Source of the DNA: an uncultured Desulfuromonas sp.
GTDB taxonomy: Bacteria; Desulfobacterota; Desulfuromonadia; Desulfuromonadales; Desulfuromonadaceae
Direction of reading: 5' to 3'
Length of the DNA: 64,000 nt
Assembly: GCA_964411865.1 (NCBI GenBank)
Contig: CAYPNO010000001.1
Span: 13,197-77,196, forward strand
The notes under the pieces are model-generated. The model was not told where the DNA came from. It did no database searches and saw only the letters and a program-made list of their open reading frames with translations. The translations under genes and the position numbers were made by a program. Positions 28,567 to 62,617 of the stretch are shown here, one piece after another (the stretch's first letter is position 1; every line of letters begins with the position of its first letter).

Positions 28567-28585
28567 AATTGATCCGCTTCTTTGA

Positions 28586-30172: not shown

Positions 30173-30219
30173 GACTTCCTACTGTCTCGAATGAGTTAAT
30201 GCGTATGGCTTGAAAACTA

Positions 30220-46474: not shown

Positions 46475-46505
46475 AAAAAAAGAGCGCCAGCCGAAACTGG
46501 CGCCC
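46475..46505 (-). terminator. Rho-independent terminator after the first OmcS-like gene
   Basis: The minus strand reads GGGCGCCAG TTTCGG CTGGCGCTC TTTTTTT, about 70 nt downstream of the stop at 46578. Confidence 0.8.
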
Positions 46506-46577: not shown

Positions 46578-47726
46578 TTAATTTTTGGTCGTATGGCACA
46601 CAAAACACCCAACATTACCAGCACCGCTAGCTGCGTTCATAACTGCGCCAGTGTCATTGGTTGGGCTGTAGGCCCAGCGCAACAGGTCATCATGCGGCGA
46701 ACCATGCGCACGGTGACATGAGATACAGGTTACAATAGCCTTACCACCAGTAAACGCAACCGCGCTAAGTGAGTGCGTCGCTTTGGTTACACTATCTCCA
46801 AGGTCAAAGGCGACCGGAGCCTCAACACTGTAGGTTCCATCTTCATTGTATGAGCGGTACTCTGAACCTTCTGCGGTATCCCCCATATCATAATCTGAAG
46901 GGTGGCGTAACCAGGGGTTCTCGCCAATGTTGGCATCTTGCCCTGCATTGGAGACAACAGGCCCAGAGTGATAATTTCCATGGCAAGTAGCACAGAAGTA
47001 ACTAATGGTTTTCTGATCAGTCTCAGAACCGCCAGCGGTTATGGTATTTCGTGCAGTTCCATGATATTCATTGCGGTTAGCTGCGCTGCTTGGGCGAAAT
47101 TCCCAATTTTGGTCTTCATACCCGATTATACCATTTAAGAAGCGATAACTTTTTGCCGCTGTACTACCGTCAATAACGGCATCATCCCCGTGATGCGCGC
47201 CAGCGATATCCTGAAAGTCATCAGCGACGCCATGAGGTCCATGACAACCGTACGTTCCCGCGCAGGTAAGCTGACTGCCCCAAGTTGCTTCGCCACCAGC
47301 AATAGCATTGTTGCTGACTGCCGGATCCCATCCTGGCGGATTAAGATTGGGCATATTGGCATCTTTCCCAATAGCTATATTAAGGACGTTATGCCCTTTT
47401 GCATCTACACCATTCGCCACCCAGTAGAAACTTCCACCGGCCAACGTGTCGCCTGTAGTTCCATCTGCCGAAGTGTAGCTAGGTTCAGAGTTGTCGGTAA
47501 TATATGGAATATTGCCATCAACAATGTTCGTGCCAGTATGACAACCAACGCAATCACCTCTGGTCAATGAACGGCTGGGACCTCCCTCAATTTCAGCCTC
47601 CCCATTTTGTGAGTTATGCATGGTGTGGCAATCAGAACACGGCCCTGCCACCTTGGCCCAGGCAGTAGAACCGCTAACGGCAAGCGCCAGAGTCAGTAGC
47701 AGGGATAATAAAACTTTGATATTCAT
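46578..47726 (-). CDS. OmcS-family hexahaem c-type cytochrome (paralogue 1), secreted
   Basis: Signal peptide MNIKVLLSLLLTLALAVSGSTAWA. Haem sites are CSDCH, CVGCH, CAGTYGCH, CATCH, CISCH, CFVCH. Motif order CSDCHTMHNS / GGSFYWV / KGHNV / YRFL / WLRHP / CISCHRAHGS / C-terminal CFVCHTTKN parallels G. sulfurreducens OmcS as I remember its sequence. Strong RBS AGGAGAGGAAGGAG. Confidence 0.8.
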   Translation of the reverse strand: MNIKVLLSLLLTLALAVSGSTAWAKVAGPCSDCHTMHNSQNGEAEIEGGPSRSLTRGDCVGCHTGTNIVDGNIPYITDNSEPSYTSADGTTGDTLAGGSFYWVANGVDAKGHNVLNIAIGKDANMPNLNPPGWDPAVSNNAIAGGEATWGSQLTCAGTYGCHGPHGVADDFQDIAGAHHGDDAVIDGSTAAKSYRFLNGIIGYEDQNWEFRPSSAANRNEYHGTARNTITAGGSETDQKTISYFCATCHGNYHSGPVVSNAGQDANIGENPWLRHPSDYDMGDTAEGSEYRSYNEDGTYSVEAPVAFDLGDSVTKATHSLSAVAFTGGKAIVTCISCHRAHGSPHDDLLRWAYSPTNDTGAVMNAASGAGNVGCFVCHTTKN

Positions 47727-48032
47727 AATAATTCTCCTTCCTCTCCTTAGTTAGGTTTTTGTACTCACACAAGCAATAAGGCATCGTGCATGCGAGGATG
47801 TAAGTTTATGCAACAATGAACGTTGTGCTGCTTCCAGAATACTTGTGCAGGCTTTAATAGTTCCCCACGATACGAGCGAATTCGCGTTTAACTCCAGACG
47901 CCTTACCCAAAACTTCCGGGTTCGTGCTCCTTTAATTTTTGCCGTGAGTGTGGCAGGGCCTACAACAGCTGACGCAACATTTTACATATGCACTTCACAC
48001 ACGCATCTACGTTTACATCCTCAAGCCGTACA

Positions 48033-48048
48033 TGCCAAACCTGTGCCA
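48033..48048 (-). promoter_or_regulatory. Candidate sigma-54 (-24/-12) promoter upstream of OmcS-like paralogue 1
   Basis: The minus strand reads TGGCAC-AGGTT-TGGCA against consensus TGGCAC-N5-TTGCW, with GG/GC spacing correct and one mismatch. It lies about 306 nt upstream of the ATG. Pattern match only. Confidence 0.3.
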
Positions 48049-48219
48049 ACTACATACTGAGGGGGTATATTTTTCAAGGATGGGAAGAGAAACTCTTTAA
48101 TTACAAGGAGATACGCGCAAACACATCTATCTCAACTAGTGGCACAATTAAGCATATGCTCCAGCCCCATTCTGGTCTGGGGTAACTGCCCCAACACGCA
48201 TATAGGTCTGGGGCATAAC

Positions 48220-48798
48220 TCACAGGGGAGGGTTAAGCAAACCGTTCAGCAATTCTCGGTGGCGTTTCATTATTTCACGGACGCGCTCATCGTCTGGCAT
48301 ATCCAGCGTCGCATGGAGTTCATCAAGCGATTCTGCAGCGGCAACAATGCGCGCATGCATAAAATCCAGGGTGAGGTTCACCTCATTCGCCACCTCTTCG
48401 AGGCAGTCGTTCTGGCGCAGTTTAACCCGCGGTTTCAGACTTCCACTCCGGACGTGCTTGAGGGTGCGTTCGATATTGTAAAGGGGGCCTGCAATCTTCT
48501 GCGGCAGAAACAGCGCCAACGCCAAGCCCCCTAACAAACTCACCCCCACGCCAGAGAGAACCACGGGCAGCAACAGGTCACTTACACGACGCAGCTTGAT
48601 GTGAGCATCATAAAAGGTTGTAATAGTTTCATGCCTGGCATAGAAATACAGCACTAGCGCCGCTACTAACGCACTGAGCAATACCACCCCAAAGATACGC
48701 CACATAAGCCAGCGCTGAAACTCTGCCTTAACTCCCAGATTCAGGGACTTACGTTGATAACCCGCTGAGGATTTATTCTTGTTATCTGTGGAAAACAT
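48220..48798 (-). CDS. Two-TM protein with HAMP-like domain and no recognisable output domain
   Basis: 192 aa. TM segments IFGVVLLSALVAALVLYF and LLLPVVLSGVGVSLLGGLALALF, followed by LPQKIAGPLYNIERTLKHVRSGSL...EEVANEVN (HAMP-like). Confidence 0.65.
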   Translation of the reverse strand: MFSTDNKNKSSAGYQRKSLNLGVKAEFQRWLMWRIFGVVLLSALVAALVLYFYARHETITTFYDAHIKLRRVSDLLLPVVLSGVGVSLLGGLALALFLPQKIAGPLYNIERTLKHVRSGSLKPRVKLRQNDCLEEVANEVNLTLDFMHARIVAAAESLDELHATLDMPDDERVREIMKRHRELLNGLLNPPL

Positions 48799-48830
48799 AC
48801 GATCTCTCCGTTCGTGTTTGTATTTTTACT

Positions 48831-50084
48831 TTAGTAGTTTTCGTGGCAGCTATTGCACAATTTCTGCCTGGACTTAAAGCGTAGGCGGTAATGGTCATCC
48901 CCAGCGTGGATCTCATGGCAAGTCATGCAGCTTATACGCCCGTCCGGCAGCAAGTGCAGCTCCTCAGACACCTTCATCCCCACAGGAGGGACAATATCCA
49001 CGGGATGCGACATAGGGCCAAAAAAATCGGGGTGACAGGCACGACAGGCCGAGTAATTGGTGAAGCGTGATTCCGCCATATCTGGATGATAATCCGGACG
49101 CTTGGAGGGGATCAATCCTCCCTGGTGCTCATTCACCCCACGCAGTGACGTAGCGACAGGTTCAACACTCTTGAGCGTTCCGACAGAAAGCGTAATAGGT
49201 TGACTTGCCTCTACTGCAAAAAAATAACATGGCACACCTGAACAATCACCACGATACAGGGCCATATCAGTTTCGAGGGTGCAGCCGCCACTACGTGGAG
49301 CCTCCTCAAAAGCAGACGTATGAGCCAGATCAAATTCATACACTTGCGACCGCTGCGTTCTGCCGCTTACATCGTGAACCTCCAGATACAAACTATAGCT
49401 GGTATCACGCTCCAGACTCGAAATACTTACTTCAATTTCTGTCTGATATACGGAGCCGGTTTCTACCACTCGCCCAGGGTCATCTGCATGCTGCAGATAT
49501 ATTTTCCCGCGCAGCGGAACACTGCTGTTGCAGCGCAGCACCAGCGTATCGGAATAGATAGGATCTCTCCGTAACGTCACTTTAGACAGGTCAAAAGGGG
49601 CTGCCTCATGCGTTGGGAGGAGCTCTAGTTGCTCAAGGGGAGGAAGTGGCACTATATACTGGTGCTCATCGCGGCACTGATCCCAGATCTCAACCACCAA
49701 CTTGCCTTGAATTTCAGTGGTTTCTACTGGGAGAATAATGTGGCGCGACGGCTGATAGCAATCCTGTATCCAGTCGACATCTACCGAACGTATATGCGTA
49801 GGAATACTAGCTGATGGTTCGACCACCGTAACCTCAGGAGTTACCTCTTTTCGGCCTGGACCTTGCCCCTGGACATGACAGACGCCGCAGGCACCATCTC
49901 GGTAAGGAGCGTGGACAAATAATCGGGACTGTTTTGAGCTCAACTCTTTAGCATGACAGTCTCGACAACCTGCATCAGCATCTACATCTGCGCCACTAGC
50001 TGGCTGCGCACTAATCCAAAACATTACGCTAATGATAAACACAATGACAATAAAGATTGCTATCACACGTTGCATGTGAGCCAT
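48831..50084 (-). CDS. Pentahaem c-type cytochrome with a large non-haem central domain
   Basis: Signal anchor. CRDCH and CGVCH at the N-terminus, about 270 haem-free beta-rich residues, then CRACH, CMTCH, CNSCH at the C-terminus. Confidence 0.8.
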   Translation of the reverse strand: MAHMQRVIAIFIVIVFIISVMFWISAQPASGADVDADAGCRDCHAKELSSKQSRLFVHAPYRDGACGVCHVQGQGPGRKEVTPEVTVVEPSASIPTHIRSVDVDWIQDCYQPSRHIILPVETTEIQGKLVVEIWDQCRDEHQYIVPLPPLEQLELLPTHEAAPFDLSKVTLRRDPIYSDTLVLRCNSSVPLRGKIYLQHADDPGRVVETGSVYQTEIEVSISSLERDTSYSLYLEVHDVSGRTQRSQVYEFDLAHTSAFEEAPRSGGCTLETDMALYRGDCSGVPCYFFAVEASQPITLSVGTLKSVEPVATSLRGVNEHQGGLIPSKRPDYHPDMAESRFTNYSACRACHPDFFGPMSHPVDIVPPVGMKVSEELHLLPDGRISCMTCHEIHAGDDHYRLRFKSRQKLCNSCHENY

Positions 50085-50100
50085 TCCTCAATAAGATAAA

Positions 50101-51591
50101 TCAGGGACGAAAAATACCAGAGCCAGCGTGACGTTGCTCCACTAGGAGCAAGCGCCGACCAGGCGTGGGCAAAATTATATGTTGGACAACGCGCCTGGAT
50201 ATTGAATCTATTTGCAAAAGATGTACCCCGTCACCCGAAAGGGCATAAACACTGGACGTAACCGGACTATAAAGCATGTCTGCCACGGGGAAAGGCAGGG
50301 TTAGTTGCCCCATTCGGGTCATATCCCGCAGATTAAGCCAGATCAGAGAGTTGCGCGTGCCGCTTCCTATCGCGACCAGCACCTGGTTACGCACCACCAG
50401 CACTTGCTGTGGCGGTGCCGCACATAAATACTGTGCCTGCAGGCTGAACTCCGGTAGCGCATAGCTATGCACCTCATTTATCCGTTCCAGCGCTAGAATT
50501 ACGCGGTTGCTGGTGCTGTCAATATCATATTCAGACGAACCAGCCATATCCGCGACACGATACGCGCTGCTATGGCGGCGATTAGCACCACTCTGTGGGT
50601 CGAATAGATACACACCATCCGCGGCGCTTACCACGATGAGCTCACCCTCTCCTCCATTACTGAAGGTCTCGCCTGCAGCAGTATATTTTTGCCGCAAAAT
50701 TTGGGTGGGGGAAAACCCCGCAACATATATATTTTGCTCCCCATTGCGACGCCCGATGCTCACTAGACGGTTGCCGCCGCTGTCGGTAATAAAAAAGGTG
50801 GGATCTCCGCCAGAGGTAGCTGTCGCCTCCATGGCTGGAGCAAATTCGATGGCGTGCTCTACCAACGGCAAGCCGAGGCGATCCAGCACGCGCCAACTGC
50901 CCCTTTCGCGCAGGGTCATGGAGGTGGGAGCCAGCCCCCAAATCCCCTCATCTTCAAGCAGATACCAATCGTTCCACTGCTCCTGCAGCCCAATCGCAAC
51001 CTGGGTGTGGAGGTTATCGCTGCGCAGGAGCAGCACCTCGGTCCCCCCTCCACCCAGAACCGCAAGCAGGTCACCGGTATAGGGAGGTTGCGCTACATCC
51101 AAGTGCCACGAGCCGTTCCAGTTTGGCGTTGGCGTACCTTCCTGTGCGCGTGCGCCCGCAGGCGATGCATTGAGCCACAACTGTAAACACACGCGCTCAC
51201 CCGCTTCGAGGCGCGCTAAACCCGTGGTCACGTTCTGGGTTGTGATTGTATCACCTTCGGCCAAGGCGATGCGTAGGTGTGGATACAACCCCGGCGCCAG
51301 CAAGCTGCCGGCTAAATAGCGCTGCCCGTCAGGGTGCTTCTCCTCAGCGGGATCGCGCTCCAACGGCAACCACACCTCCGCCGTGGCGTCATACACCTCC
51401 ACTTCACGGATAGCGGCCGCAAGGGGGGCAATCTGTCTCTCCGCGCCATTTAAATACAGATAGATCCCTGTCTGCTCTAGCGTCGCATCGGTACTGAAGG
51501 AGGTGAAACCCCCGTGGGAATGAAGCCCGACTTGATTACAGCCGAGGCAACCCAAGGTAAGGAGCAGAGCACCGAGATAGATTAGGCGCAT
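50101..51591 (-). CDS. Probable lipoprotein with beta-propeller-like repeats
   Basis: MRLIYLGALLLTLGCLGC is a lipobox-like signal. Repeated short beta-strand/turn segments (FFITDSGGNRLVSI, LIVVSAADGVYLFD, VYALSGDGVHLLQID). Start set to ATG 51591, with GAGGA 9 nt upstream. Confidence 0.65.
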   Translation of the reverse strand: MRLIYLGALLLTLGCLGCNQVGLHSHGGFTSFSTDATLEQTGIYLYLNGAERQIAPLAAAIREVEVYDATAEVWLPLERDPAEEKHPDGQRYLAGSLLAPGLYPHLRIALAEGDTITTQNVTTGLARLEAGERVCLQLWLNASPAGARAQEGTPTPNWNGSWHLDVAQPPYTGDLLAVLGGGGTEVLLLRSDNLHTQVAIGLQEQWNDWYLLEDEGIWGLAPTSMTLRERGSWRVLDRLGLPLVEHAIEFAPAMEATATSGGDPTFFITDSGGNRLVSIGRRNGEQNIYVAGFSPTQILRQKYTAAGETFSNGGEGELIVVSAADGVYLFDPQSGANRRHSSAYRVADMAGSSEYDIDSTSNRVILALERINEVHSYALPEFSLQAQYLCAAPPQQVLVVRNQVLVAIGSGTRNSLIWLNLRDMTRMGQLTLPFPVADMLYSPVTSSVYALSGDGVHLLQIDSISRRVVQHIILPTPGRRLLLVEQRHAGSGIFRP

Positions 51592-51606
51592 GGATATCAT
51601 TCCTCT

Positions 51607-52980
51607 TTAAAAAGTCTTTCTGGTACCACCCTTTTTGAGTGGTACTGTCGCAGGCCATTCCCCTGCCGGGTTGGGCACAAACGAGCCGTGATAGTGGCAA
51701 ATTTCACAGCGAATAGCAGGGGGCCTTCCTCCCCCGCCGTCGGAGCCCTCCGCATAATGACACCCGCATCCGGAGACTTGCGATCCCGCATATGGGCTTA
51801 AATTCCCCTGGCCGTGATGCTGCAATTTCCAGTCATTGACGCTGCCTGTACCCAGCATCGAATCATCCTTATGGCACTGGCGGCATTGATTACCGCGTCC
51901 GTCGCTTTCGCTGGCGGTGATAGTCAGTGGCTCACCATTAATGGAGCGCCGTACTAAAAATGGATAGGGTGAACCGTGGGGCTCATGACAGTCGAGGCAA
52001 CTGAGCACATAGTTGCTTTTTCCTCCGGAAGCGTACGGTTCGCGCAGCCAAGTTTCCCCTGTACGGGAGGACTGACCGTGCTTGTCCCCCCCGGTTGAAC
52101 CATCTGTATTGCTCCAGTTGATCATGGTAAGGTAGTCACGCTTATTCCTACCGTTGATGGCAGGCTTGTCTACCCCATGACAATCGTTGCAAAAAGTTAC
52201 GTAGTCGGGAACCAGATCGGGAGCAGAATTGAGTATACCCCCCGGTTCGTATCTCGTTGTGGAATGGCTGAAGAATGGGGCCTGATACCCACCGTATTTG
52301 TTCATGGTTTCGTCGATGTCACCACCGCCGTCGCCCCACAGATTCTCGTGATCAGACGGAAGAGAGATGGCAGTGAAAGTCGGATCTTTTACCGCGCTTA
52401 TATTGCGCCGAGCTCGGTGCGGGTTATGACAGGCCACACAAGGGTTTGAATCTTCTTTGAACCAGGCAAAGTTCTGTGCCGCATACTCTTGGATACCCAA
52501 CAGGTTGTGGTATGAATTCTCCGCGCCGCTGGTGTGGTTGAAATGCTGTAGTATCCCTTCGTCGGTCCCTGCATCGTAACCACCAAAGGTTTCTGCGTAG
52601 TCATGATTTAACAGTACACCGCCCACTTGTTGGGAAGAAGATGCCGCATGGCACTGAAAACAAAAATTATCCTCCTGGGCATAAGTAGCAGCCGCTGCTG
52701 CGCGATTGAAATTTGCACTGAACAGGGCAAACCCACCGGCAGTGGCGCTGACCGGAGCTGGTTGTTCTCCGCCGACACTGGCATGCTGCTCATGACAGTG
52801 GGCACAGTTGCCCTGAGTATATGCATCTGGCATGCTGGTGCGTAGCACTCCATGAGAGGGATCGCCGTGGGCTGAATCTGCATAAGCCCCAGCATACACA
52901 CAAGAGGTGCCCAAAAGGAAAGCAACGACAACAAGGCAAATCCTCAGACCGATAAACACCCACACATCTCGCGTTACCAT
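51607..52980 (-). CDS. Multihaem c-type cytochrome (7 CxxCH plus one CGCH)
   Basis: Signal anchor. CAHCH, CFQCH, CVACH, CNDCH, CLDCH, CRQCH, CEICH, plus CGCH at 51757-51768. Trimmed to the ATG at 52980, 13 nt after the upstream stop. Confidence 0.8.
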   Translation of the reverse strand: MVTRDVWVFIGLRICLVVVAFLLGTSCVYAGAYADSAHGDPSHGVLRTSMPDAYTQGNCAHCHEQHASVGGEQPAPVSATAGGFALFSANFNRAAAAATYAQEDNFCFQCHAASSSQQVGGVLLNHDYAETFGGYDAGTDEGILQHFNHTSGAENSYHNLLGIQEYAAQNFAWFKEDSNPCVACHNPHRARRNISAVKDPTFTAISLPSDHENLWGDGGGDIDETMNKYGGYQAPFFSHSTTRYEPGGILNSAPDLVPDYVTFCNDCHGVDKPAINGRNKRDYLTMINWSNTDGSTGGDKHGQSSRTGETWLREPYASGGKSNYVLSCLDCHEPHGSPYPFLVRRSINGEPLTITASESDGRGNQCRQCHKDDSMLGTGSVNDWKLQHHGQGNLSPYAGSQVSGCGCHYAEGSDGGGGRPPAIRCEICHYHGSFVPNPAGEWPATVPLKKGGTRKTF

Positions 52981-52993
52981 ACAACAAACCTCA

Positions 52994-54142
52994 TTAATTT
53001 TTGTTGCTGTGACATTCGGTACACAATCCACCCGTAGCACTGCCAGCGTAGTTCCAGCGCATCGCTTTGTAATATTTACTGCCGTGGGCGCGGTGGCAAG
53101 AGACACATGTGACGATGGTGTCTTTGCTAAAAGTCACACTATTTTTTACCGTACTCACGGTTTCACTCGCCACCGGCACGGCCTGATTGTAGCTTTTTCC
53201 CGCACCGCCATAGTTGCGGTACTCACTTGAAACACCAGTTTTACCCATATCGTAATCAGTAGGATGACGTAACCACGGCGATGCAGTACCAACATTCCCT
53301 GCACCACTGTGATACGCACCGTGGCAGCGCGCACACAGGCTACTAATGGTGTTGGTGTTACTGCCCCCAGGATTATCTACCCCCTTATACTGGTTATGCG
53401 CGTCTGCTGTCGGGTGGAACTCCCAGTTTGGGTCTTCATAGCCCTCTATCCCCACCAAAAAACGGTATCCAGCTGCCGGAGCATTGCCTGGGTTAATACG
53501 CGCCCCGCCGAGATCGCCATGATGCGCCCCGTGGATGGCACTGGTCTGTGATGCTTCGGCATGGGTACCGTGGCAACCATATACACCAGCGCAGGTAACT
53601 TGCTGCTCGCTCGGCCATATCCCCCCGCCTGGTCTACTGCCGTCAGCAGCAGCACGGCCTCCATCAAAGCCGGGTGGGGTATGGAGGATACTGTCAGCAT
53701 TGGTCAAACCAGCGACATTGTGACCTGTCGCATCCCCACCAACAGCTCCGTAAACTGGCTGAGTCACCCAGTAAAAGCTCCCTCCCGCCAGGGTGGTGGT
53801 ATCGGTTCCGGTACCATTTGCACCATAGGTGGGAGCGGTGGACGTCACAAAGGGGGTATCGCCACCGAACTCATTGGTGCCGGTATGGCATCCGCCGCAA
53901 TCGCTGCGCAATAATGCCTGGTGCGGCCCACCTTCATCCCACTCAGAGAGAACACTATTGTTCTGGCTATAGTGCATGGAGTGACAGTCGGAGCATGGAC
54001 CACTGACGCGCGCATGCACGGGCGCAGCCCAAAACGGCAGATACACAAGCAACGCCAATAGACCAGCAACAAGATCCAGCCTTGCACACAGCGCCGTGCG
54101 GATACGGTGGCAGCCGTTTATGTGTGTGCCTGATCCAGACAT
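52994..54142 (-). CDS. OmcS-family hexahaem c-type cytochrome (paralogue 2)
   Basis: CSDCH, CGGCH, CAGVYGCH, CARCH, CVSCH, CTECH. Shares GGSFYWV, GHNV, YRFL, WLRHPTDYDMG, CVSCHRAHGS and a C-terminal CTECHSNKN with paralogue 1. Start ATG 54142, with AAGGGAG 5 nt upstream. Confidence 0.8.
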   Translation of the reverse strand: MSGSGTHINGCHRIRTALCARLDLVAGLLALLVYLPFWAAPVHARVSGPCSDCHSMHYSQNNSVLSEWDEGGPHQALLRSDCGGCHTGTNEFGGDTPFVTSTAPTYGANGTGTDTTTLAGGSFYWVTQPVYGAVGGDATGHNVAGLTNADSILHTPPGFDGGRAAADGSRPGGGIWPSEQQVTCAGVYGCHGTHAEASQTSAIHGAHHGDLGGARINPGNAPAAGYRFLVGIEGYEDPNWEFHPTADAHNQYKGVDNPGGSNTNTISSLCARCHGAYHSGAGNVGTASPWLRHPTDYDMGKTGVSSEYRNYGGAGKSYNQAVPVASETVSTVKNSVTFSKDTIVTCVSCHRAHGSKYYKAMRWNYAGSATGGLCTECHSNKN

Positions 54143-54187: not shown

Positions 54188-55069
54188 TTAGCGCCTGAAC
54201 AAATCCACGCAGCGATTGACCTCGTCGAGAATCGCAAGAGCTCCACTGCCGCGAGCAGAATCAAGGAACAGGATCTGACGCGGGGCACTGAAACGCCCAA
54301 GGCGGTTGCCGCGTGCCCCGATGCTGTACAAGTGGCGCCCTGCAGGGGAAAAAATCAGCACCTGACACAACCCACGATCGGCTATGAACAATTGCCCCTG
54401 CGGGCTGCGCTCCAGCGCGGACGGGCGTTTAAGATCGTACTGTAATGCGATGCGCTCCCCTTTACTTTCGCTTGCGCCACTGGGATCGACCTGCACAACA
54501 CTGGCGTCAGCCTGTAACAACCAGAGCTTTCCTGATGCGCTCACAACATCAACGCAATTACTCCCATAGCGTCCGCGCACGCTGAGGCTGTCATCCAGCG
54601 CGAGGACATTACCGCTGAGGCGGTCGAGAACCATCAAACCCACTTCCGGATGCCACACCACCTTCTCTGGCAGCATGGCGTTTGCCCCCGTGAGGGGAAA
54701 AGGGAAACGTTCTAGGCGCTGCTCTTCGGGGACTAGTCGCGCCAACGCATTGGCTTTGCGGTCTACGAACCAGAAGCGTCCGGAGCGCTGCAGAGTGATG
54801 GAGACTGGGGTACCAAGATCGCCTCCGGCATCGAAGTCGGAGAGATGCTGCCCGTCGAGATTGAAGGCATGCAGTTTCCCTGCCAGTCCGTCCGCTATAT
54901 AGATGCGCTCCCGCTGTGAATCAAAAACCATCGCCAGGGCAGACTCAAGACGCACGCCGGATTGCGGATCGGGAGCGCGCCACTGGCTGATCCATGCAGC
55001 AGCGGAGGCCGGTATTGGGAAAATACAACAATAGAGCAGCAGAGCGATTATTACCTGTGAATATCTCAT
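54188..55069 (-). CDS. NHL-repeat beta-propeller protein, secreted
   Basis: Signal peptide MRYSQVIIALLLYCCIFPIPASA. NHL-like repeats (RIYIADGLAGKLHAFNLDG, LFIADRGLCQVLIFSPAG). The track ORF extends spuriously into the upstream gene, so it was trimmed to the ATG at 55069. Confidence 0.75.
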   Translation of the reverse strand: MRYSQVIIALLLYCCIFPIPASAAAWISQWRAPDPQSGVRLESALAMVFDSQRERIYIADGLAGKLHAFNLDGQHLSDFDAGGDLGTPVSITLQRSGRFWFVDRKANALARLVPEEQRLERFPFPLTGANAMLPEKVVWHPEVGLMVLDRLSGNVLALDDSLSVRGRYGSNCVDVVSASGKLWLLQADASVVQVDPSGASESKGERIALQYDLKRPSALERSPQGQLFIADRGLCQVLIFSPAGRHLYSIGARGNRLGRFSAPRQILFLDSARGSGALAILDEVNRCVDLFRR

Positions 55070-55079
55070 AGTCTTACCT

Positions 55080-56270
55080 TTAATATCCCGGATGGCACGG
55101 CAGACACAGGCCGCGCTCGCGCCCTCCGCGTAGATTATGTTCAAACATAGTTCCGGTACACGGCGAGTGACACGAGATGCAATCCATCGGAGTGCCGGTG
55201 CGGGGGTCAAGTGAGTCCTCACCGATGGGATGGGTAAAGGTGCTGTGTTCACCGTGACAGGATTCGCAAGCTCCTGCCATGGCGCCGCGCAGCATATAGG
55301 GCTCATCGGAGCCGTGTCCGGCGTGGCAGTCGCTGCAGTGGTTGGCCTGCGGATGAACATGGAGCGCTTGCTTGCGGCGCTCGAGCTTGTCGGCGTGGCA
55401 GCTGCGACACACGCTACCGGCAATCCCTTTTAATAGCCCAGTCTGACTGCTGACATGTGGGCTGTGGCATGCAGTACAGCTCGAATTTCCTTTGCTTTGC
55501 AGATGGGTGTGCACTTGCTGGAACTGGGGCAACACTTGAGAGTGACAGGAGAGGCAGCGCCCATCTGCGCTGGAACCTTTGTGACAAGCAGAGCAGTTGC
55601 CTGTGGCAAAGGGCTTATGTTGCAGAGGGCGCAGCAGGGATTTCTCTGTACTGGCATGGGGATGATGACACTCCAAACAGTTCATCCCCTGCGCCTTGCG
55701 CCCGCTGTGACGCTGCTGCCAAGCAGAATTGGTTTTATGACACCCGAGGCACAATTCAGAATCCTCGCTTCGCAGCAAGCCCTGATGCTCACTGCCGTGG
55801 ACGGCATGGCAACTGGCACACTGCCCTTTTTTAAAGGGGGCGTGCCGTTTTCCTTGAGTGACGCTCAGGCTGGTATGACATGCGGCGCACACCTCTTTCT
55901 GCTGATCCTTGAGCAACCCTTTGAAAGCACTGGCATGGGGAGCATGACAACTGGTGCATTCCCCCTTATGTACCGGGCTGTGGGTGTAGGCGCTCTTTGT
56001 CCAGGCTTCTGTTACCTCGGCATGGCAGCCGTTGCACAACTGCGCCTCCGATTGCTGCAACAAGCCAGCGTGGCGGGAGGCGTGCAGACTATGGCAAGAG
56101 TCGCAGCGGTTACGCGCCACAGGTTCATGCTCATAGGTCCCTTTGAAGTTGATGCTGTCATGACACTGGACACAGTTAAGCGCCAGACTCACGCAGGCAG
56201 GAAAGAGCACAAGTGCAATTACTGTGAGGAGGATCTTCCACCTGCTGCATCTGTAATTTCGATACATCAT
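55080..56270 (-). CDS. Multihaem c-type cytochrome, 16 CxxCH
   Basis: I counted 16 CxxCH motifs in about 396 aa, with an N-terminal signal anchor. The start ATGATG overlaps the TGA of the upstream gene. Confidence 0.88.
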   Translation of the reverse strand: MMYRNYRCSRWKILLTVIALVLFPACVSLALNCVQCHDSINFKGTYEHEPVARNRCDSCHSLHASRHAGLLQQSEAQLCNGCHAEVTEAWTKSAYTHSPVHKGECTSCHAPHASAFKGLLKDQQKEVCAACHTSLSVTQGKRHAPFKKGQCASCHAVHGSEHQGLLRSEDSELCLGCHKTNSAWQQRHSGRKAQGMNCLECHHPHASTEKSLLRPLQHKPFATGNCSACHKGSSADGRCLSCHSQVLPQFQQVHTHLQSKGNSSCTACHSPHVSSQTGLLKGIAGSVCRSCHADKLERRKQALHVHPQANHCSDCHAGHGSDEPYMLRGAMAGACESCHGEHSTFTHPIGEDSLDPRTGTPMDCISCHSPCTGTMFEHNLRGGRERGLCLPCHPGY

Positions 56271-58189
56271 TTGTTTTTCTCCGCATGGCAGGACGCGCAT
56301 TTGCCGTCGGCAAACGGGGTGTGCTGAACCGGGAATAACAGTGAAGCTGTCGGACCGCCGTGGCTGTCGTGACAGGTGGTACAGTTCTGCACCGAGAGCG
56401 GTATGTCGCCGTGGCTTTGAGCCATTTCAGGGGTATCGACTTGATGGCAACTGGTGCAAATCTGCGCAAGCGGACGTACGAGTAGAGCGGCATGGTCTCC
56501 GCCATGGCTGACATGGCACGCAGCACACTCCCCCTCTACGGCAGGCTTATGCCCACTACCTGCCTCCCAGAAATCATCTACCTGCTGATGACATCCGAGG
56601 CACAATCCGGGTTTTTCGCGGCGCAAATATCCCGAGATAGCACTGCCATGCGACTGATGACATGCGCTACAGCGCTGGGTGGCAAAGGGCTGATGCTCAT
56701 ATGCATTGGCGCCAGGCTTGGCCGTGGCGTGACAGGTAAAGCACGCCTCCCCTTCGGGCTGATTGAGCAAAAATGGATGCTCACCTGCGTGGGGCTGATG
56801 ACAATCACGACATTTACCGCGCTCGAACGGCGGATGCCCGTAACCTGCCCCATAGTCAGCTGTAGTGTTTTCATGGCATTGCAAGCATAGCTGTAGCTCT
56901 ACTGCCTCCAGCAACGCAGGCTGTGCTGCCCCATGCGGAGCATGACATGCGCTGCATTTACCCTGAAGCAGAGGAGCGTGTACCGACGGTGCTGCCATAT
57001 CTTGCCGTACCCCAGAATGGCAGCTACTGCAGAGCTTATCTTGCGCAGTTACAAGCAAGGCGGGGGCACCCGCCGCGTGCATGCGATGGCAGCGGCGACA
57101 GTCATTTTGTTGTACAGGGGGATGCTTCACCGTGGTTGCGCGCTCTGGATAAGCGTGACATTTTAGACAAACCGCGCTAGCTGGGGCACGGAGCAGATTG
57201 TCGGCTCCCGCTGCGGCATGATGCGGGGCGTGACATTCGAGACAGTCGCTCTCACCCGCGTCAGGGTGATGCGCCCCGCCAACGCGGATCTCCGGATGAC
57301 ACCCAAGGCACAGGCTACTGCTATCAGTTTTAAGCAGAGACGGAGAATCACTGGCGTGCGGCACATGGCAGGCGGAACAGTTGCCCTCCACCACCGGAGC
57401 ATGCCCCTGATTGAGCTGCGCCTGTTGCTGCACCGTGGCATGACAAAGGGAACAGAGTCGATCTGCGGGGGCTTGGGTGACAGCACTGTTGGACTGGTGA
57501 CAATCGGTGCAATCCCCATTGGCAACAGGTGTATGTACAGAACGCCGCCACAGGGCTGGAGTTCTACCACCATGTGAATCATGACATTCAGAGCAACCTG
57601 CAAGCGGAATCCCTCCATGGGCGGCATTCAAACCCTCGGGTGCGTGACAGGTCGCGCACAGTAGGGTCTCGCTCTGAAGTAGAAGCATAGCTGCGCTGCT
57701 ACTGTGGGGGGCATGGCAGGTGCCACACCCTTGCTGTACGGGGGGATGGATCTGGGCTACCTTGGAGTCAAATCCGGTGCGTGGATGGCATTCAAAACAC
57801 AACTGTTGCGGTGCTACAGGGTGTAGCTTTGCATGCTCGCTCCCGTGGGGGATATGACACCCAGCGCAGTTACCTTCTTTCACCGGTTGGTGCACATTGC
57901 TGAGCAATTGTGACGGACGGAGCTGTTCATGGCAGGAATAGCATACCTCCGGCACCGGTTTGAGCAGATACGCTCCTCCGATAATACCGTGATTACGGTG
58001 ACAAGCGCTGCAATTGTTCTTTTGTGCCGGCTCATGGGGAACCGACTGTTGCGCGATAGATTTAAATTCTTCGTGACATTCAAGGCAGTTTTTCTGGATG
58101 GCGAAGCGTCGCTGCTTGCGTGGGGTACAGGAACACATCAACGCCATCAACACCATCGCCGTTAGTATAAAAAATAGATTACGCCTCAT
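56267..58189 (-). CDS. Multihaem c-type cytochrome, 26 CxxCH
   Basis: I counted 26 CxxCH motifs in about 640 aa, arranged as repeating c7/c3-like units (...H.PV..G.C..CH.PH...). Signal with a possible lipobox (LMCSC). Start ATG 58189, with GGAGG 6 nt upstream. Confidence 0.88.
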   Translation of the reverse strand: MRRNLFFILTAMVLMALMCSCTPRKQRRFAIQKNCLECHEEFKSIAQQSVPHEPAQKNNCSACHRNHGIIGGAYLLKPVPEVCYSCHEQLRPSQLLSNVHQPVKEGNCAGCHIPHGSEHAKLHPVAPQQLCFECHPRTGFDSKVAQIHPPVQQGCGTCHAPHSSSAAMLLLQSETLLCATCHAPEGLNAAHGGIPLAGCSECHDSHGGRTPALWRRSVHTPVANGDCTDCHQSNSAVTQAPADRLCSLCHATVQQQAQLNQGHAPVVEGNCSACHVPHASDSPSLLKTDSSSLCLGCHPEIRVGGAHHPDAGESDCLECHAPHHAAAGADNLLRAPASAVCLKCHAYPERATTVKHPPVQQNDCRRCHRMHAAGAPALLVTAQDKLCSSCHSGVRQDMAAPSVHAPLLQGKCSACHAPHGAAQPALLEAVELQLCLQCHENTTADYGAGYGHPPFERGKCRDCHQPHAGEHPFLLNQPEGEACFTCHATAKPGANAYEHQPFATQRCSACHQSHGSAISGYLRREKPGLCLGCHQQVDDFWEAGSGHKPAVEGECAACHVSHGGDHAALLVRPLAQICTSCHQVDTPEMAQSHGDIPLSVQNCTTCHDSHGGPTASLLFPVQHTPFADGKCASCHAEKNK

Positions 58190-59783
58190 GCGCCACCTCC
58201 GCATGAACCTTCTTCCATACGCGCTGATCTACCTCGATGGTGGAGGCCTCTCGCAGGCGTGAATGCAGGAGTTCTAGCGCCGCATGGCGCTTCTGTTGTT
58301 CCAGTTCGGTGCGCAGCTGTGCGGATACCTGCTCCAGTGGCTGTATCTGCTCCTGCGCACGATGAATAAGCCTAAAGAAATACACCCTATCGCCAATATC
58401 GAGCGCTCCGCTCTGACCTGGAGACAGCCCTTGGAGTGCGACCTGCATAGCTTCGGGTTCGTCCTGCGGATTAACCCAACGCGTGGATACCCCCTCTGGT
58501 GCCAGTGGGCGCACCACTTCATCGAACGCCATCCCTTGTTGTAATTTCTGCCTCAGTTGTTGCGCCAGCCTGACTTCACGCGTCTCAATTTGTGCCATAT
58601 AGAGCACTTCTGGGGTGGTGAAACGTTGCAACTGTTCTACGTACGCCTGCTCTATCTCGGCTGCACTCGCTTCTAGTTCCTGGGGTTTCAGCACCATCTG
58701 CTCCAATTCCCTAACCAAACGGTATTGAGTATAAAAGGAGTAGACCTCTTTGAACGGAACGCGTTGTTCGTAGTGACGTTGCAACGCTTCGAAACCCGTG
58801 AGTGTTTGCGCCACCATATCGCGCACCACTATATCCAGCGCTTGGGGATAGGTAAAATCATTCCGCGTGCTGGCGCGTTTTTCACATTCTTCCAGCGCGG
58901 ATTGATGTAGTAATTCTAAGGGGATATCTCCACCATCAAAAGAAATACCGGTCTTGCCTTCAAGATCAGAAGGGACTCCATCCTCGCTCAAAGCTTCAAT
59001 ATGCTCAGTATAAATTTTTACTGTGTATTTTTCCTTTAATTGAGCCATTAAATCACGATTTAGCTGCGCGCGCTTCTCTTTGCGCCACTGCTTTTCTAGG
59101 GCGGAACGCACGTGGGCGAAGTGTTTAGAATCAAAAGCGTGCTCCTCCTCCACAAATATCAGGTTCCACTGGTCGTGCCATGCGAATGGAGCACCCCAGT
59201 AGCCGGCCTCCAACTGGACTATCTGTTCCCATACGACAGCATCTAGACGTTCGGCATAGGCTTGTTCTAGGCGTGCCAGTCGTTCATTAGGCTCAAATCC
59301 CATCTCTGTCAAAACGTCCTGCGCTGACTGTGTAACAACCGCAGCATGAAACTCACGCGCCTGCTCCTCAGTATCAAGGTGCACAGCCAACAAGGTAAAA
59401 CGGGGGAGATATCTGCCTGAATACAACTGGCGCAGCTCTGCTTCAGACGGGGTCCCAACCTTTCCGAGGATCTCCTCCTCGCGCAATAGCATAAGTGAAC
59501 GAACCTTGAGGAACACCCCCACCTTGCGCTGATATTCAGGGCGAGTATATAACTCCATGGCCTCAGCTTCCTGCACCTTAAGCTGAAAATCTATGAATGA
59601 ATCAGGAGTCTCTGGTACCTCCATCTCCGGCTCACGCCATTGCTGCCACCAGGAAACATACTCGGCATTAGAGTATTCCTGCTGGTTTATAGTTACCAAA
59701 ATGTTGCTATCCCAGAACCAAGCAAAAGCTGGATTGGTCCAGAAGAGCAGGGTGAGGAGTATATATCCTAAACATAAACGCAT
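58179..59783 (-). CDS. SurA/PpiD-like periplasmic chaperone with degenerate parvulin-like domain
   Basis: Signal peptide LLTLLFWTNPAFA. Long helical SurA-N-like regions. The C-terminal LSPGQSGALDIGDRVYFFRLIHRAQ resembles the end of a parvulin PPIase domain, but catalytic residues are not evident. Confidence 0.6.
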   Translation of the reverse strand: MRLCLGYILLTLLFWTNPAFAWFWDSNILVTINQQEYSNAEYVSWWQQWREPEMEVPETPDSFIDFQLKVQEAEAMELYTRPEYQRKVGVFLKVRSLMLLREEEILGKVGTPSEAELRQLYSGRYLPRFTLLAVHLDTEEQAREFHAAVVTQSAQDVLTEMGFEPNERLARLEQAYAERLDAVVWEQIVQLEAGYWGAPFAWHDQWNLIFVEEEHAFDSKHFAHVRSALEKQWRKEKRAQLNRDLMAQLKEKYTVKIYTEHIEALSEDGVPSDLEGKTGISFDGGDIPLELLHQSALEECEKRASTRNDFTYPQALDIVVRDMVAQTLTGFEALQRHYEQRVPFKEVYSFYTQYRLVRELEQMVLKPQELEASAAEIEQAYVEQLQRFTTPEVLYMAQIETREVRLAQQLRQKLQQGMAFDEVVRPLAPEGVSTRWVNPQDEPEAMQVALQGLSPGQSGALDIGDRVYFFRLIHRAQEQIQPLEQVSAQLRTELEQQKRHAALELLHSRLREASTIEVDQRVWKKVHAEVAHEA

Positions 59784-59815: not shown

Positions 59816-60427
59816 TCAGGAGTTACACCCGACCTGCCCTTGTTCAACCCATTTCGCGATTAACTCCCGCGTCATTCTTGCCGCAAGCTCTGTGTAACTA
59901 TAAACCACGCCATAATGCATAAGGCTGCGGTAATCGTCACCCCGGCGTGAATAGAACACCTGACTAATCAGGCTCCCGTCTACTTTAAGCAGTTCGATCT
60001 GCAGAGTTATAAGTGGCACTTTTGTATTACTGTCAGCGTACTCTTGAGTGAAGGTAAGCACCTTGCCCCGAATGTAGCCATCAACCTGCAGCTCTCCCGC
60101 CATGCCCTCGAAAACGGAAGCCGGAGCACTGTATATCTCGCTAGGGAAAGTCTGACTTCGCCGTAAAACACTTCGCATATCCGCAGGGTTGCACACCTGC
60201 ATCTGGGGCGCAGCAATAAGCTCGGTGACCATGGTGCGATAACATAAGGTTGCGGCAGTACTGTTTTCAGTTTCATTCAGCAGTGGCAAAAGCGCCACGC
60301 GACACAAACGTGGCTGCAGTTGTGGTGCCACAGTGTATACATACTCCCCACCCCTGGTGCATCCGACTATACTGCAGAGCAGCAACAGAACCACTGTACG
60401 CGCCACTATTAAAAACCGCTGTTCCAT
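59816..60427 (-). CDS. Lipoprotein, CsgG-N/LpoB-fold-like
   Basis: Lipobox LLCSIVGC. RVALLPLLNETENS motif right after the signal. 203 aa. Confidence 0.65.
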   Translation of the reverse strand: MEQRFLIVARTVVLLLLCSIVGCTRGGEYVYTVAPQLQPRLCRVALLPLLNETENSTAATLCYRTMVTELIAAPQMQVCNPADMRSVLRRSQTFPSEIYSAPASVFEGMAGELQVDGYIRGKVLTFTQEYADSNTKVPLITLQIELLKVDGSLISQVFYSRRGDDYRSLMHYGVVYSYTELAARMTRELIAKWVEQGQVGCNS

Positions 60428-62010
60428 ACCAATTTTTGCTCTTCCATTTCCCCAGGCTCAGTTCCTATTGAATCTGCAGCAATATACTGGCCTACCGGGG
60501 TGGTTTTAGTCCAGTATCTGTTCCCCACGCTATCCTGCACATAGAGTTGACAAAAAAGTTCCTGCTCTTGCGCTACTTTCTGTGGCAGGACGATCTTGGC
60601 TGGCAGTGTTGTACCAGAAATTTTGTACAGCTCATTGTCATTACTGTCAGTTATATACACTTTCCACGCACGAGATTCCGCAGCGGGGTTTTTGTCGCGC
60701 AACAGGAGCGCGGTTTTCCCCTCCTTATGCACTTTGTCCAGCGTCGCTAGCTCTTCCTGCGCTTGGTGTAGATATACTTCGGTGCTTGCAGTTGTGGCGA
60801 ATCCCGCCACATCCTGGATATGAAGGTTTACCGTGTAGACACCTGATGGGAGTGGATACCTACGCGCGTCGATACCAGCCCAGTTTAGGGCTGCCGGCAG
60901 ATCACCGCTGCGCTGCTGGGATAAAACCTGGTTTTTCCTACTATCGAGAACCTCAAATGTCCATGTATCAACGGGGCGCTTGTTCTGCATGCGGGGACGC
61001 AGAGTCAGGCGACGACTAAACACCGGCGCACTGTGGGCGGCATCAGCTACAGCTGAAGATTCCAACTCCAAATGCACCGCCTCGCTTACCGCCTCTATCT
61101 GAGTCACTGTGGTCAAAGTCAGCGCAGATTCAACCACAGTGTGTTTCAGACGAACAGGGTAAACACCTGGCGTGATGGGAGCTTCAAGCTGGGCTACATA
61201 GATATCTCTCAGTTCACCATTCTCAGAACTGGGATGCAGGTCAAAATTCCTCCCCCCAAGTTCAAGAGTAAACGCACTAATATCGGCAACTTCGGTGCGG
61301 ATTTTTATCCGGCATCTAATACTGCCTCCACAGCGCACCAGGGTCTGGGAACAGTCAATCACCTCGACGGCATAGTTTGGATTCATCGTAATGGTGCCAG
61401 GGGTGAAGCCATCAGGGGAGATCCGCCCAAGCGAGTCGACCAGATCCTTTGTGGCCTGCCGCAGCAGACCTTCCAAATCCATATCTTGCTGTAATCCCAG
61501 GAGGGCAATCTGGCCAGCAGCGGAATAGGTGTGTGCTTCACCCCACACCGGAGTGCCGCTGGCGGCATGGTACAGTTGGAGTAAAAGCCCCAGCGTTGGG
61601 GTATTTCCCCCAGTCGATTCGACAATGCTGACACTCAAAAGATTGGTGCAACCTAAACGTATACCCAGTTGGCGACAGGCGAAACGGTCGACTTCACCCA
61701 GATCGCGCAGGCGTAACGCTCGAACTTCCTCCATAACCCGCTCGGGCTCAACCAGATCAAATCCGCTGGAAAGAAGGGCCGCATGCAATGTGCGCTGCAG
61801 TGCTTGATCCCAAGAGGACACCCCCGCACTGAGATCTGCGACCGGCAACAGCGCAATTACCGGGCGTGATTCCTGAGCGTGCCCGACTCCGGGAACGCTC
61901 AGAAACAGCGCTGCAACCCATATACAGATGCACAGTCTTATATATGTGCTGGGAATAACAGCTGCCAAGGCAATTCTCCTCAATGTGCGATGTCCCGTTT
62001 TCAGCTTCAC
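60409..62010 (-). CDS. Secreted protein with N-terminal CsgG-N/LpoB-like module and C-terminal Ig-like beta-rich region
   Basis: Signal ...LFLSVPGVGHA, then VIALLPVADLSAG. The C-terminal region of about 330 aa is beta-rich (e.g. TWTFEVLDSRKNQVL...SGVYTVNLHIQD). GTG start with a weak RBS, so the start is uncertain. Confidence 0.6.
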   Translation of the reverse strand: MKLKTGHRTLRRIALAAVIPSTYIRLCICIWVAALFLSVPGVGHAQESRPVIALLPVADLSAGVSSWDQALQRTLHAALLSSGFDLVEPERVMEEVRALRLRDLGEVDRFACRQLGIRLGCTNLLSVSIVESTGGNTPTLGLLLQLYHAASGTPVWGEAHTYSAAGQIALLGLQQDMDLEGLLRQATKDLVDSLGRISPDGFTPGTITMNPNYAVEVIDCSQTLVRCGGSIRCRIKIRTEVADISAFTLELGGRNFDLHPSSENGELRDIYVAQLEAPITPGVYPVRLKHTVVESALTLTTVTQIEAVSEAVHLELESSAVADAAHSAPVFSRRLTLRPRMQNKRPVDTWTFEVLDSRKNQVLSQQRSGDLPAALNWAGIDARRYPLPSGVYTVNLHIQDVAGFATTASTEVYLHQAQEELATLDKVHKEGKTALLLRDKNPAAESRAWKVYITDSNDNELYKISGTTLPAKIVLPQKVAQEQELFCQLYVQDSVGNRYWTKTTPVGQYIAADSIGTEPGEMEEQKLVWNSGF

Positions 62011-62035: not shown

Positions 62036-62617
62036 TCAGTACGTCAGGGTAAGAAGTATATCTTCTATCAATTGTCTAGCCACCTGATGCAAATTATCGC
62101 TTTCAAGTCCGAAAATGCGGTCTTTGGTGCTGTAACCGGAGCCAACGTGGCTCGCTTGCCACAAGATTTTTCCGCTGTTAATTTCTACCAGGCGCAGGGT
62201 CAGCGCAACCACTGGATAGGAATAACTTCCGTTGCGTTCAAGACTGTATGCTTCAACCGAGCCGGCCAGATATGCCTGGACGCCAAACTCACGCCCTAAC
62301 CTACGCGCTGTTGCCTGTGGGATGGAGGTCTTATCTTCCCCTACAATTTCGTCATTAAGAAAACGGCGCAGGTCCCCTTTTTCCAGAACCTCAAAAAATC
62401 CCATGCTCATCACTTGGGTACTCAGCAGATCACGCACCTGCTTTTCTACAAAGCGCTCCGCCGTATTATTTTCAAAGGGAAGCACAGCAACCCTTTTCAC
62501 AAAGCCGGTCGCAAGTGCTGGATCGGTGTGATAGCTTGGAACCGCTGCACACCCCGCTAAAAACATCAGCATAATTATTGTCAGAACCACCCGCACTTTA
62601 TGCCCATCACTCAACAT
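62036..62617 (-). CDS. Lipoprotein, CsgG-N/LpoB-fold-like
   Basis: Lipobox MFLAGC. Motif order RVAVLPFENNTAE / GFFEVLEKGDLRRFLNDE / AYLAGSVEAYS / VALTLRLVEINSGKILW parallels the periplasmic domain of E. coli CsgG as I recall it. At 193 aa it is too short to contain the CsgG pore hairpins. Confidence 0.65.
   Translation of the reverse strand: MLSDGHKVRVVLTIIMLMFLAGCAAVPSYHTDPALATGFVKRVAVLPFENNTAERFVEKQVRDLLSTQVMSMGFFEVLEKGDLRRFLNDEIVGEDKTSIPQATARRLGREFGVQAYLAGSVEAYSLERNGSYSYPVVALTLRLVEINSGKILWQASHVGSGYSTKDRIFGLESDNLHQVARQLIEDILLTLTY

Follow-up and report, generated by a model that had tools for sequence, protein, structure and literature searches.

Do the two similar hexahaem cytochromes encoded in this stretch of DNA from an uncultured Desulfuromonas sp. 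belong with OmcS, the filament-forming cytochrome of Geobacter sulfurreducens, and might they build conductive filaments of their own? The stretch analysed here, referred to as the window, comprises 64,000 nucleotides (nt) of contig CAYPNO010000001.1 (assembly GCA_964411865.1, positions 13,197 to 77,196), and carries the two genes, here called A and B, on its minus strand (Table 1). In the reading that we prefer and consider probable, A and B are cytochromes of the OmcS superfamily that work with a companion gene system of the osc/oet type in extracellular electron transfer, and one or both, A being the more plausible, polymerise into a haem wire. Both are good, if unproven, candidates for conductive-filament subunits; filaments of this type have been predicted before in related bacteria.

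Each gene encodes a secreted c-type cytochrome of 382 residues, a length that gene prediction on public contigs of the same sequence (Logan assemblies of SRR2167432 and SRR2167396) also returned. The two proteins are 45% identical over 377 aligned columns (E = 2e-82) and begin with Sec-type signals that can be read from the translation (...AWA/KVAGPC in A and ...VHA/RVSGPC in B). An earlier note on this DNA, made from the letters alone, had named both open reading frames and a set of shared motifs, all of which are present in both translations: CSDCH(T/S)MH, GGSFYWV, GHNV, AHHGD, YRFL, ED(Q/P)NWEF, WLRHP(S/T)DYDMG, C(I/V)SCHRAHGS and a C-terminal CxxCHxxKN. Its count of six haem sites in the same order was also reproduced by a regular-expression search, with one amendment, namely that five sites are CxxCH and the third is CX5CH (CAGTYGCH in A, from residue 155, and CAGVYGCH in B, from residue 184). 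The two cysteines of this third site are kept in 100 and in 101 of the 101 sequences of the family alignment. The CAGxxGCHG segment around it (residues 155–162 of A, approximately 47243–47266, and residues 184–191 of B, approximately 53570–53593) has a spacing that is rare for c-type haem attachment and that may require, or be compatible with, a particular haem lyase. Pfam and NCBIfam contain no OmcS-specific model, and A and B match generic multihaem domains only (Paired_CXXCH_1 and Cytochrome_C7).

The OmcS sequence used as query is identical to chain 6EF8_A, which contains every string that the earlier note had quoted for OmcS (CEGCHTMHNS, GGDFGWV, KGHNIV, NLRHP, CLSCHRAHAS and CNKCHAKD). 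Comparison with OmcS by BLASTP and by profile, the check that the note had proposed, gave significant matches at each level. BLASTP aligned A to OmcS at 27% identity with E = 1e-12 and B with E = 1e-7, haems 1 to 5 being collinear in both alignments. A profile built from 47 homologues, searched against the whole PDB, retrieved OmcS (6ef8_A) with E = 4.8e-17, aligning profile positions 30–348 with chain residues 7–349; the next match was NrfB, at 0.002. OmcE and OmcZ families were absent among these PDB matches, as was any solved member of the A/B clade, leaving OmcS as the only significant relative of solved structure. Aligned family against family with hhalign, the A/B group matched the group of OmcS, OmcT and GSU2501 with 99.84% probability (E = 2.7e-30, 313 columns). 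The resemblance lies far outside what chance would give, and to judge by these profiles, A and B are true distant homologues of OmcS.

The pairwise distances define how close this kinship is. A is 27.4% identical to OmcS, 26.4% to OmcT and 26.3% to GSU2501, and B is 25.3%, 26.0% and 25.1% identical to the same three proteins, which in the fetched Geobacter locus are 50–60% identical among themselves. Because A and B are equidistant (25–27%) from OmcS, OmcT and GSU2501 (OscC), their sequences place them in a sister clade to the Geobacter OmcS group and not among OmcS orthologues, and the duplication that gave A and B is separate from the Geobacter duplication. The assignment to the OmcS family made in the earlier note therefore holds as homology at the profile level and not as orthology.

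The likeness to OmcS (GSU2504; 6EF8, 6NEF) extends over nearly the whole chain. Both are secreted proteins of approximately 380–430 residues, mostly coil, with six haem sites in the same order, of which sites 1 to 5 align and site 6 lies 3–4 residues from the C-terminus. They share the motifs CxxCHTMHNS, GGxFxWV, GHN(I/V), YR(F/I)L, (L)RHP, CxSCHRAH(G/A)S and R(W/F), the position of His16 of OmcS, and linkage to osc-type genes. By contrast, A and B are only 25–27% identical to OmcS, carry CX5CH where OmcS has CxxCH at haem 3, and start, once mature, with K/RV(A/S)GPC and not with FHSGG. They also have extra invariant histidines in AHHGD and CHGxxH, and the stretch from haem 5 to haem 6 is approximately 30 residues shorter in them.

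The clade around A and B is large: over 2,100 clusters formed at 90% identity match at E ≤ 1e-3, and 275 representatives at 50% identity match at E ≤ 1e-30, out of 1.84 billion proteins. Where members are named, they come from metagenome-assembled genomes (MAGs) of Desulfuromonas (82–84% identical to A) and from Desulfobulbaceae, Thermodesulfatator and Thermosulfuriphilus; ‘cytochrome c3 family protein’ is their sole annotation. A is 50–52% identical to the first hexahaem protein of a pair in Thermosulfuriphilus ammonigenes, which exceeds its identity to B, and in a Desulfurivibrionaceae MAG a homologue 42% identical to A accompanies parts of the companion block described below.

OmcS homologues outside Geobacter have already been reported and modelled as filaments (PMC10553843, PMC12545173, PMC10954620). 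DA_402 of Desulfurivibrio alkaliphilus is described as an extracellular hexahaem relative of OmcS with CX2-5CH motifs, assigned to a sister clade of OmcS (Nature 2025, PMC12545173). DA_402 and the OmcS-like proteins of sulfate-reducing bacteria (SRB), from Desulfobulbia, Thermodesulfobacteria and Desulfuromonadales, are associated with an oet cassette, have been modelled with AlphaFold2 (AF2) and are proposed to polymerise (PMC12545173, PMC10553843); this published clade is as yet without an experimental filament structure. A 2026 review recognizes five distinct wire types, of which OmcS is the only one from the OmcS superfamily (PMC12954529). Membership of A and B in the published OmcS-like clade, in which they would be placed by its description and taxonomy and not by sequence comparison, is consistent with the CX2-5CH motifs described (PMC12545173), with the range of taxa (PMC10553843) and with the Desulfurivibrionaceae homologue of A.

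In the OmcS filament one ligand is shared between subunits. The residue that the neighbouring subunit donates to haem 5 of OmcS we take to be His16. Its equivalent, H37 in A and H57 in B, lies three residues after the first CxxCH and is present in 101/101 sequences of the family alignment, on which all ligand conservation was scored; the position is likewise invariant in the OmcS/OmcT/GSU2501 alignment. Both paralogues thus keep the CH-x-M-H arrangement that the earlier note had pointed out. Each OmcS subunit supplies 11 of the 12 axial histidines of its own haems, the remaining one, at haem 5, being donated by the neighbour (bioRxiv 10.1101/492645). The proximal histidines of the A/B family are invariant in five of the six haem motifs and kept in 98/101 sequences at haem 3 (H162). 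Seven histidines outside the motifs are present in every sequence (H37, H112, H178, H179, H253, H275 and H341), and two more are kept in most (H165 in 88/101 and H218 in 92/101). Five positions, H37, H112, H165, H275 and H341, correspond in the alignment to invariant histidines of the OmcS family (H16, H110, H147, H257 and H335), so that four of the OmcS-equivalent histidines are among the seven invariant ones and the fifth is H165. Residue 218 (approximately 47073–47075) is arginine in A and histidine, within an HNQY motif, in B and most of the family, a difference that could separate the paralogues functionally.

The second line of evidence is the company that B keeps. As the earlier note had stated of one paralogue, B is embedded in an accessory operon: it comes ninth in a dense series of minus-strand genes that runs from beyond position 64000 down to 48220, starting 45 nt after the NHL-like gene and ending 13 nt before the next cytochrome gene, with its own ribosome-binding site (RBS), TAAGGGAG. 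The order of the operon matches that of the Geobacter-type locus L010; in loci of this type a GSU2501-type hexahaem gene is followed by genes for a YncE propeller, a 720–790-residue protein with no Pfam match, an LpoB/GNA1162 lipoprotein, a 425-residue protein with an LpoB-like N-terminus, a SurA-like Rotamase_2 peptidyl-prolyl isomerase (PPIase) and a large multihaem cytochrome. GSU2501 (OscC) belongs to the same superfamily as A and B and, like B, is a hexahaem gene attached to the companion block (PMC12977616).

The individual correspondences vary in strength. Homologues of OscF and OscI are clear: the product of 62036..62617 matches L010 OscF with E = 1e-26 (and a partial Geobacter GSU2498 with E = 2e-12), and the 26-haem cytochrome is 33% identical to the product of the L010 OscI-position gene, with E = 1e-115. 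The PPIase and the 533-residue protein match their Osc counterparts by domain, position and weak collinear similarity, with BLASTP E = 0.002 for the former and E = 0.014 for the N-terminus of the latter against the L010 OscG-position gene. The same genes are more readily matched in the complete genome of T. ammonigenes, where the corresponding identities are 25% for the 533-residue protein (E = 4e-32), 29% for the PPIase (E = 2e-67), 34% for the 26-haem cytochrome and 39% for the 16-haem cytochrome. The frame at 62729..64000 is open to base 64000, where the window cuts it; its product, which ends in ...SYNF, aligns with residues 357–622 of the 622-residue T. ammonigenes protein in the matching position (E = 1e-9).

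T. ammonigenes and Thermodesulfatator atlanticus each have two family genes in tandem, placed divergently beside the same eight-gene block, and all eight block genes of T. ammonigenes have collinear homologues in the window, with equal haem counts of 26 and 16. Among MAGs, those labelled Malonomonas, Deferribacteres, Desulfuromonadales and Desulfurivibrionaceae have related blocks. B is 54% identical to the product of the gene in the matching position in the Malonomonas MAG (L044), and the NHL-like gene has homologues in L044 and in three other loci (L036, L041 and L042), with an NHL-annotated gene at the matching place in L045 and L046.

Two published accounts of this block differ in what they make of it. 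The Geobacter genes are named oscC to oscK (GSU2501 to GSU2493) and, in PMC13194489 and PMC12977616, both citing Shen 2025, are reported to be needed for the folding, secretion and morphology of OmcS, with OscH assigned to folding, OscE, OscF and OscG to secretion and OscD to morphology. The OetABI cassette of syntrophic SRB, by contrast, is read as a porin–cytochrome conduit, and OmcS-like genes lie beside the oet cassette in Desulfuromonadales, Desulfobulbia and Thermodesulfobacteria (PMC10553843). The osc block and the OetABI cassette are apparently the same block. In common with the osc operon, and in the same order, the window has a barrel candidate, an LpoB-like lipoprotein, a second LpoB-like protein, a PPIase, a 26-haem and a smaller multihaem cytochrome and an NHL propeller. 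It differs in placing the block upstream of the hexahaem genes, where the OmcS system has it downstream, in having an extra small lipoprotein between the OscG and OscH positions, in showing no homologue of OscD (a YncE propeller) demonstrable by BLASTP and no GSU2502-type gene, and in having heptahaem, lipoprotein, pentahaem and small membrane protein genes between B and A. The composition also resembles that of the minimal OmcE nanowire cluster of G. sulfurreducens and D. soudanensis, which combines the wire subunit and a large β-barrel with two multihaem cytochromes and two propeller lipoproteins (bioRxiv 10.1101/2025.10.22.684050). OmcE itself, unlike A and B, is a tetrahaem protein, and it has no sequence similarity to them.

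A is laid out differently. It is monocistronic, with a strong RBS (AAGGAGAGGAAGGAG), a terminator-like hairpin and a long leader, much as the earlier note had described it; the gap that the note put at 490 bp measures 493 nt. The layout recurs in two Desulfuromonas-type MAGs (L047 and L048), where the operon is followed by a 400–500-nt gap, an A-type gene and genes for a GGDEF protein and a CHASE4 kinase. In the window, the corresponding genes directly downstream of A (42892–46446, minus strand) encode a PAS-GGDEF diguanylate cyclase and a CHASE4-HAMP-PAS histidine kinase; as these keep their position in the two related MAGs, they may have a regulatory connection with the cytochrome locus. The B-type gene and its neighbours are split into small open reading frames in L048 (ENA contig, positions 3758–7661), with the A-type gene intact, which could reflect decay of the embedded genes or assembly indels.

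Within the leader of A, a sigma-54-type −24/−12 element, TGGCACAGGTTTGGCA, lies at 48048..48033, approximately 305 nt upstream of the start codon. It is identical in L047 and reads TGGCACAAATATAGCT in L048. The pattern occurs 4 times in the window against 4.08 expected, which is the chance level, and the element is offered as a conserved-position lead only. The Geobacter omcS locus has a gene for a sigma-54 activator upstream. No riboswitch or other RNA motif was matched in the 493-nt leader by Rfam at the gathering threshold or at E ≤ 1. Two successive GCCCCA...TGGGGC hairpins at approximately 48160–48225 (minus strand), just after the stop codon of the 48220–48798 gene, are kept in 3/3 aligned leaders; they could be an operon-end terminator or an attenuator, and no T-run was noted after them.

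Taken together, these features suggest a sequence of events in which haems would be attached in the periplasm and at least one paralogue would then be exported across the outer membrane, aided by the companion proteins. A is the best candidate for export and filament formation because it is monocistronic and has the strongest translation signals. The exported subunit would polymerise head to tail, with H37 of A completing the bis-histidine ligation of haem 5 in the neighbouring subunit, and the outcome would be a continuous, insulated chain of haems for extracellular electron transfer. Of this picture, the homology to OmcS, the six collinear haem sites, the kept histidine, the companion cluster and the arrangement of the genes are shown, and export, polymerisation, ligation across subunits and the direction in which electrons flow are inferred.

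Several observations weigh against this proposal. The companion block has the competing published reading cited above, as an OetABI porin–cytochrome conduit without filaments (PMC10553843). In single-sequence phmmer searches of the PDB with A or B, OmcS was not found and only noise was returned, so that a profile search was needed to reach it. In the alignment of the A/B clade there is no counterpart of His2 and His63, which are near-invariant in the OmcS family; they appear to be replaced by other invariant histidines (H178 and H179 of AHHGD, and H253), and their loss, with CX5CH at haem 3, means that haem packing and the subunit interface may differ from those of OmcS. Since seven invariant non-motif histidines are available for six distal positions, H37 could in principle ligate a haem of its own subunit. 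OmcT and GSU2501 keep the His16 equivalent, although OmcS is the only one of the three observed in filament form (PMC12977616), and this histidine is thus necessary and not diagnostic.

Structure prediction adds a further point on the same side, with a limit of its own. An AF2 model built from 47 sequences reached a predicted local distance difference test score (pLDDT) of 60 and had no Foldseek matches in the PDB; with 97 sequences the pLDDT rose to 79.9 and the predicted template modelling score to 0.81, the mature part being approximately 19% helix and 10% strand. Foldseek with this second model did not retrieve 6EF8 from the PDB either, and returned only OmcE (7TFS) at an insignificant E = 1.3 and probability 0.06. 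The Foldseek comparison with OmcS that the earlier note had called for thus failed with both models; as the protein is approximately 70% coil, which 3Di searches handle poorly, the result is uninformative and not evidence against homology. The low helix and strand content of the model is as expected for an OmcS-like coil wrapped around its haems.

The most serious competitor, which we nevertheless regard as rather unlikely, is that A and B are non-polymerising hexahaem carriers, at the surface or in the periplasm, that serve an OetABI-type porin–cytochrome conduit, with no filament at all. The barrel candidate and the 26-haem and 16-haem cytochromes of the operon form just such a set as has been read as a porin:cytochrome conduit (PMC10553843), GSU2501/OscC is listed as periplasmic by prediction (PMC13194489), and the missing Foldseek match to OmcS points the same way. 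A PPIase, LpoB/CsgG-like lipoproteins and propellers would, however, be superfluous for a simple conduit, and the Geobacter counterparts are reported as folding and secretion factors of OmcS (PMC13194489). The invariance of the inter-subunit histidine position also speaks against this competitor, and the RBS and terminator that A has to itself fit an abundant structural protein.

A division of labour between the paralogues is compatible with the preferred, filament-forming reading, and in its specific form we think it unlikely. By analogy with OmcS and OscC/GSU2501, A would be the bulk filament subunit and B a low-copy nucleator, base or anchor, or cap, or else the two would co-polymerise. B sits inside the companion operon as GSU2501 does, and A, separate and with its own signals, resembles omcS in this respect; the two-gene layout is kept in related MAGs, and paired hexahaem genes lie beside the block in Thermodesulfobacteria. 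Every Geobacter genome with the block keeps GSU2501, even those without omcS (PMC12977616). The arginine at position 218 of A, where B has the family histidine, fits a difference in role. On the other side, the distance between A and B (45% identity) is about equal to that from many other family members, the pairs found elsewhere are not clearly orthologous to A and B, and the locus of the Malonomonas MAG has no A-type gene within the fetched DNA. A more speculative extension, for which we see only a slim chance, is a two-component wire in which the embedded paralogue (B, or OscC/GSU2501) nucleates, anchors or caps by way of the companion machinery and the free one (A, or OmcS) polymerises onto it, an arrangement that would have arisen independently in two clades, with CX5CH giving a haem geometry not seen in OmcS.

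A catalytic role for A and B, as multihaem enzymes akin to nitrite, hydroxylamine or sulfite reductases and not as electron conduits, is highly improbable and was rejected: the local matches to NrfA/NrfB-type cytochromes that might suggest it are weak, the motif count gave no CxxCK site or other sign of an open-coordination haem, the invariant histidines would suffice in number for bis-histidine ligation of all six haems, OmcS is the sole significant match of known structure, and scores against Nrf, DmsE and similar family models fall far below their cut-offs.

If A or B does polymerise as we propose, OmcS-type wires would be not a Geobacter speciality but a property of a large clade (the 275 clusters above) that spans Desulfuromonadales, Desulfobulbia and thermophilic Thermodesulfobacteria and is always accompanied by one and the same eight-gene helper block. 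As OmcS-like wires outside Geobacter are already in the literature, the locus adds an example and not the concept. The features most worth following up are the CX5CH site and the layout of one embedded and one free paralogue, which offers a handle on how filaments are started or anchored across cytochrome wires. Cultured carriers of the cluster exist (T. ammonigenes, CP048877 at about 2.009–2.030 Mb, and T. atlanticus, ATXH01000008), which makes the filament question directly testable.

The remaining genes between B and A include two further cytochromes and a lipoprotein, each considered for a role in the comparison above. The heptahaem cytochrome has an N-terminal CAHCHEQH, with the same CH-x-x-H spacing as OmcS, and a CLDCHEPHGSPYPFLVRR module that resembles haem 5 of the family; its homologue follows the hexahaem gene in the Deferribacteres MAG. 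As an OmcS-like paralogue it was rejected, with an hhalign probability of 95.9% over 60 columns only, in the haem 5–6 module. The pentahaem cytochrome was set aside as well, its similarity being local to haem modules and not that of a full-length relative of A and B. The product of 50101..51600 fits OscD in length and lipoprotein nature; its BLASTP comparison with the OscD-type propeller of L010 was not significant, and that assignment was dropped. The small membrane protein that closes the operon has homologues in matching position in L044, L036, L047 and L048.

Table 1. Positions of the two hexahaem genes, the companion operon and the flanking elements of A in the window (coordinates count from the first base of the 64,000-nt stretch).
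Feature	Coordinates	Strand	Assignment and basis
Paralogue A	46578..47726	minus	382 aa, hexahaem, monocistronic; open reading frame, profile, hhalign
Paralogue B	52994..54142	minus	382 aa, hexahaem, operon-embedded; RBS TAAGGGAG
Outer-membrane β-barrel candidate, C-terminal part	62729..64000	minus	OscE/OetI position; putative barrel
LpoB/CsgG/GNA1162-like lipoprotein	62036..62617	minus	OscF homologue (GSU2498 type); Pfam LpoB 2e-08, CsgG 5e-07
533-aa protein, LpoB-like N-terminal region and FlgD-Ig-like domain	60409..62010	minus	OscG position; FlgD_ig
203-aa lipoprotein, IVGC lipobox	59816..60427	minus	homologues in same position in L038, L044, L036, L045
SurA-like peptidyl-prolyl isomerase	58179..59783	minus	OscH position; Pfam Rotamase_2 E 9e-13
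26-haem cytochrome	56267..58204	minus	OscI homologue (GSU2495 type); 26 CxxCH
16-haem cytochrome	55080..56300	minus	OscJ/OetB position; 16 CxxCH; Paired_CXXCH_1 E 1e-59
NHL/six-bladed β-propeller-like protein	54188..55072	minus	OscK position; weak NHL, SGL, Vgb_lyase matches
Heptahaem cytochrome, 457 aa	51607..52980	minus	seven CxxCH; homologue directly after hexahaem gene in L036
Lipoprotein of ~499 aa, LTLGC lipobox	50101..51600	minus	no Pfam match
Pentahaem cytochrome, 417 aa	48831..50084	minus	five CxxCH; Pfam Paired_CXXCH_1, Cytochrome_C7, Cytochrom_c3_2
192-aa membrane protein, last operon gene	48220..48798	minus	weak HAMP/histidine-kinase-like matches only
Leader/promoter region of A	47727..48219	minus	493 nt; sigma-54-type element, paired hairpins
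Intrinsic-terminator-like hairpin	46505..46482	minus	downstream of A; 10-bp stem, 7 GC pairs, then TTTTTTT

Elsewhere in the window, a complex-I-like operon on the minus strand (27148–33714, continuing to approximately 37177) includes genes for NuoH-type and 49-kDa subunits and four Proton_antipo_M antiporter-like genes (at 27148, 28586, 30220 and 32221), one above the usual NuoL/M/N set. A chemotaxis cluster on the plus strand (7537–20440) encodes a 1047-residue Hpt-kinase-CheW-receiver fusion, CheB, CheR, a receiver-SpoIIE phosphatase and three methyl-accepting chemotaxis proteins, one of which has a Cache_3-Cache_2 sensor; it is followed at 21235–24713 by genes for an HDOD protein and a hybrid kinase.

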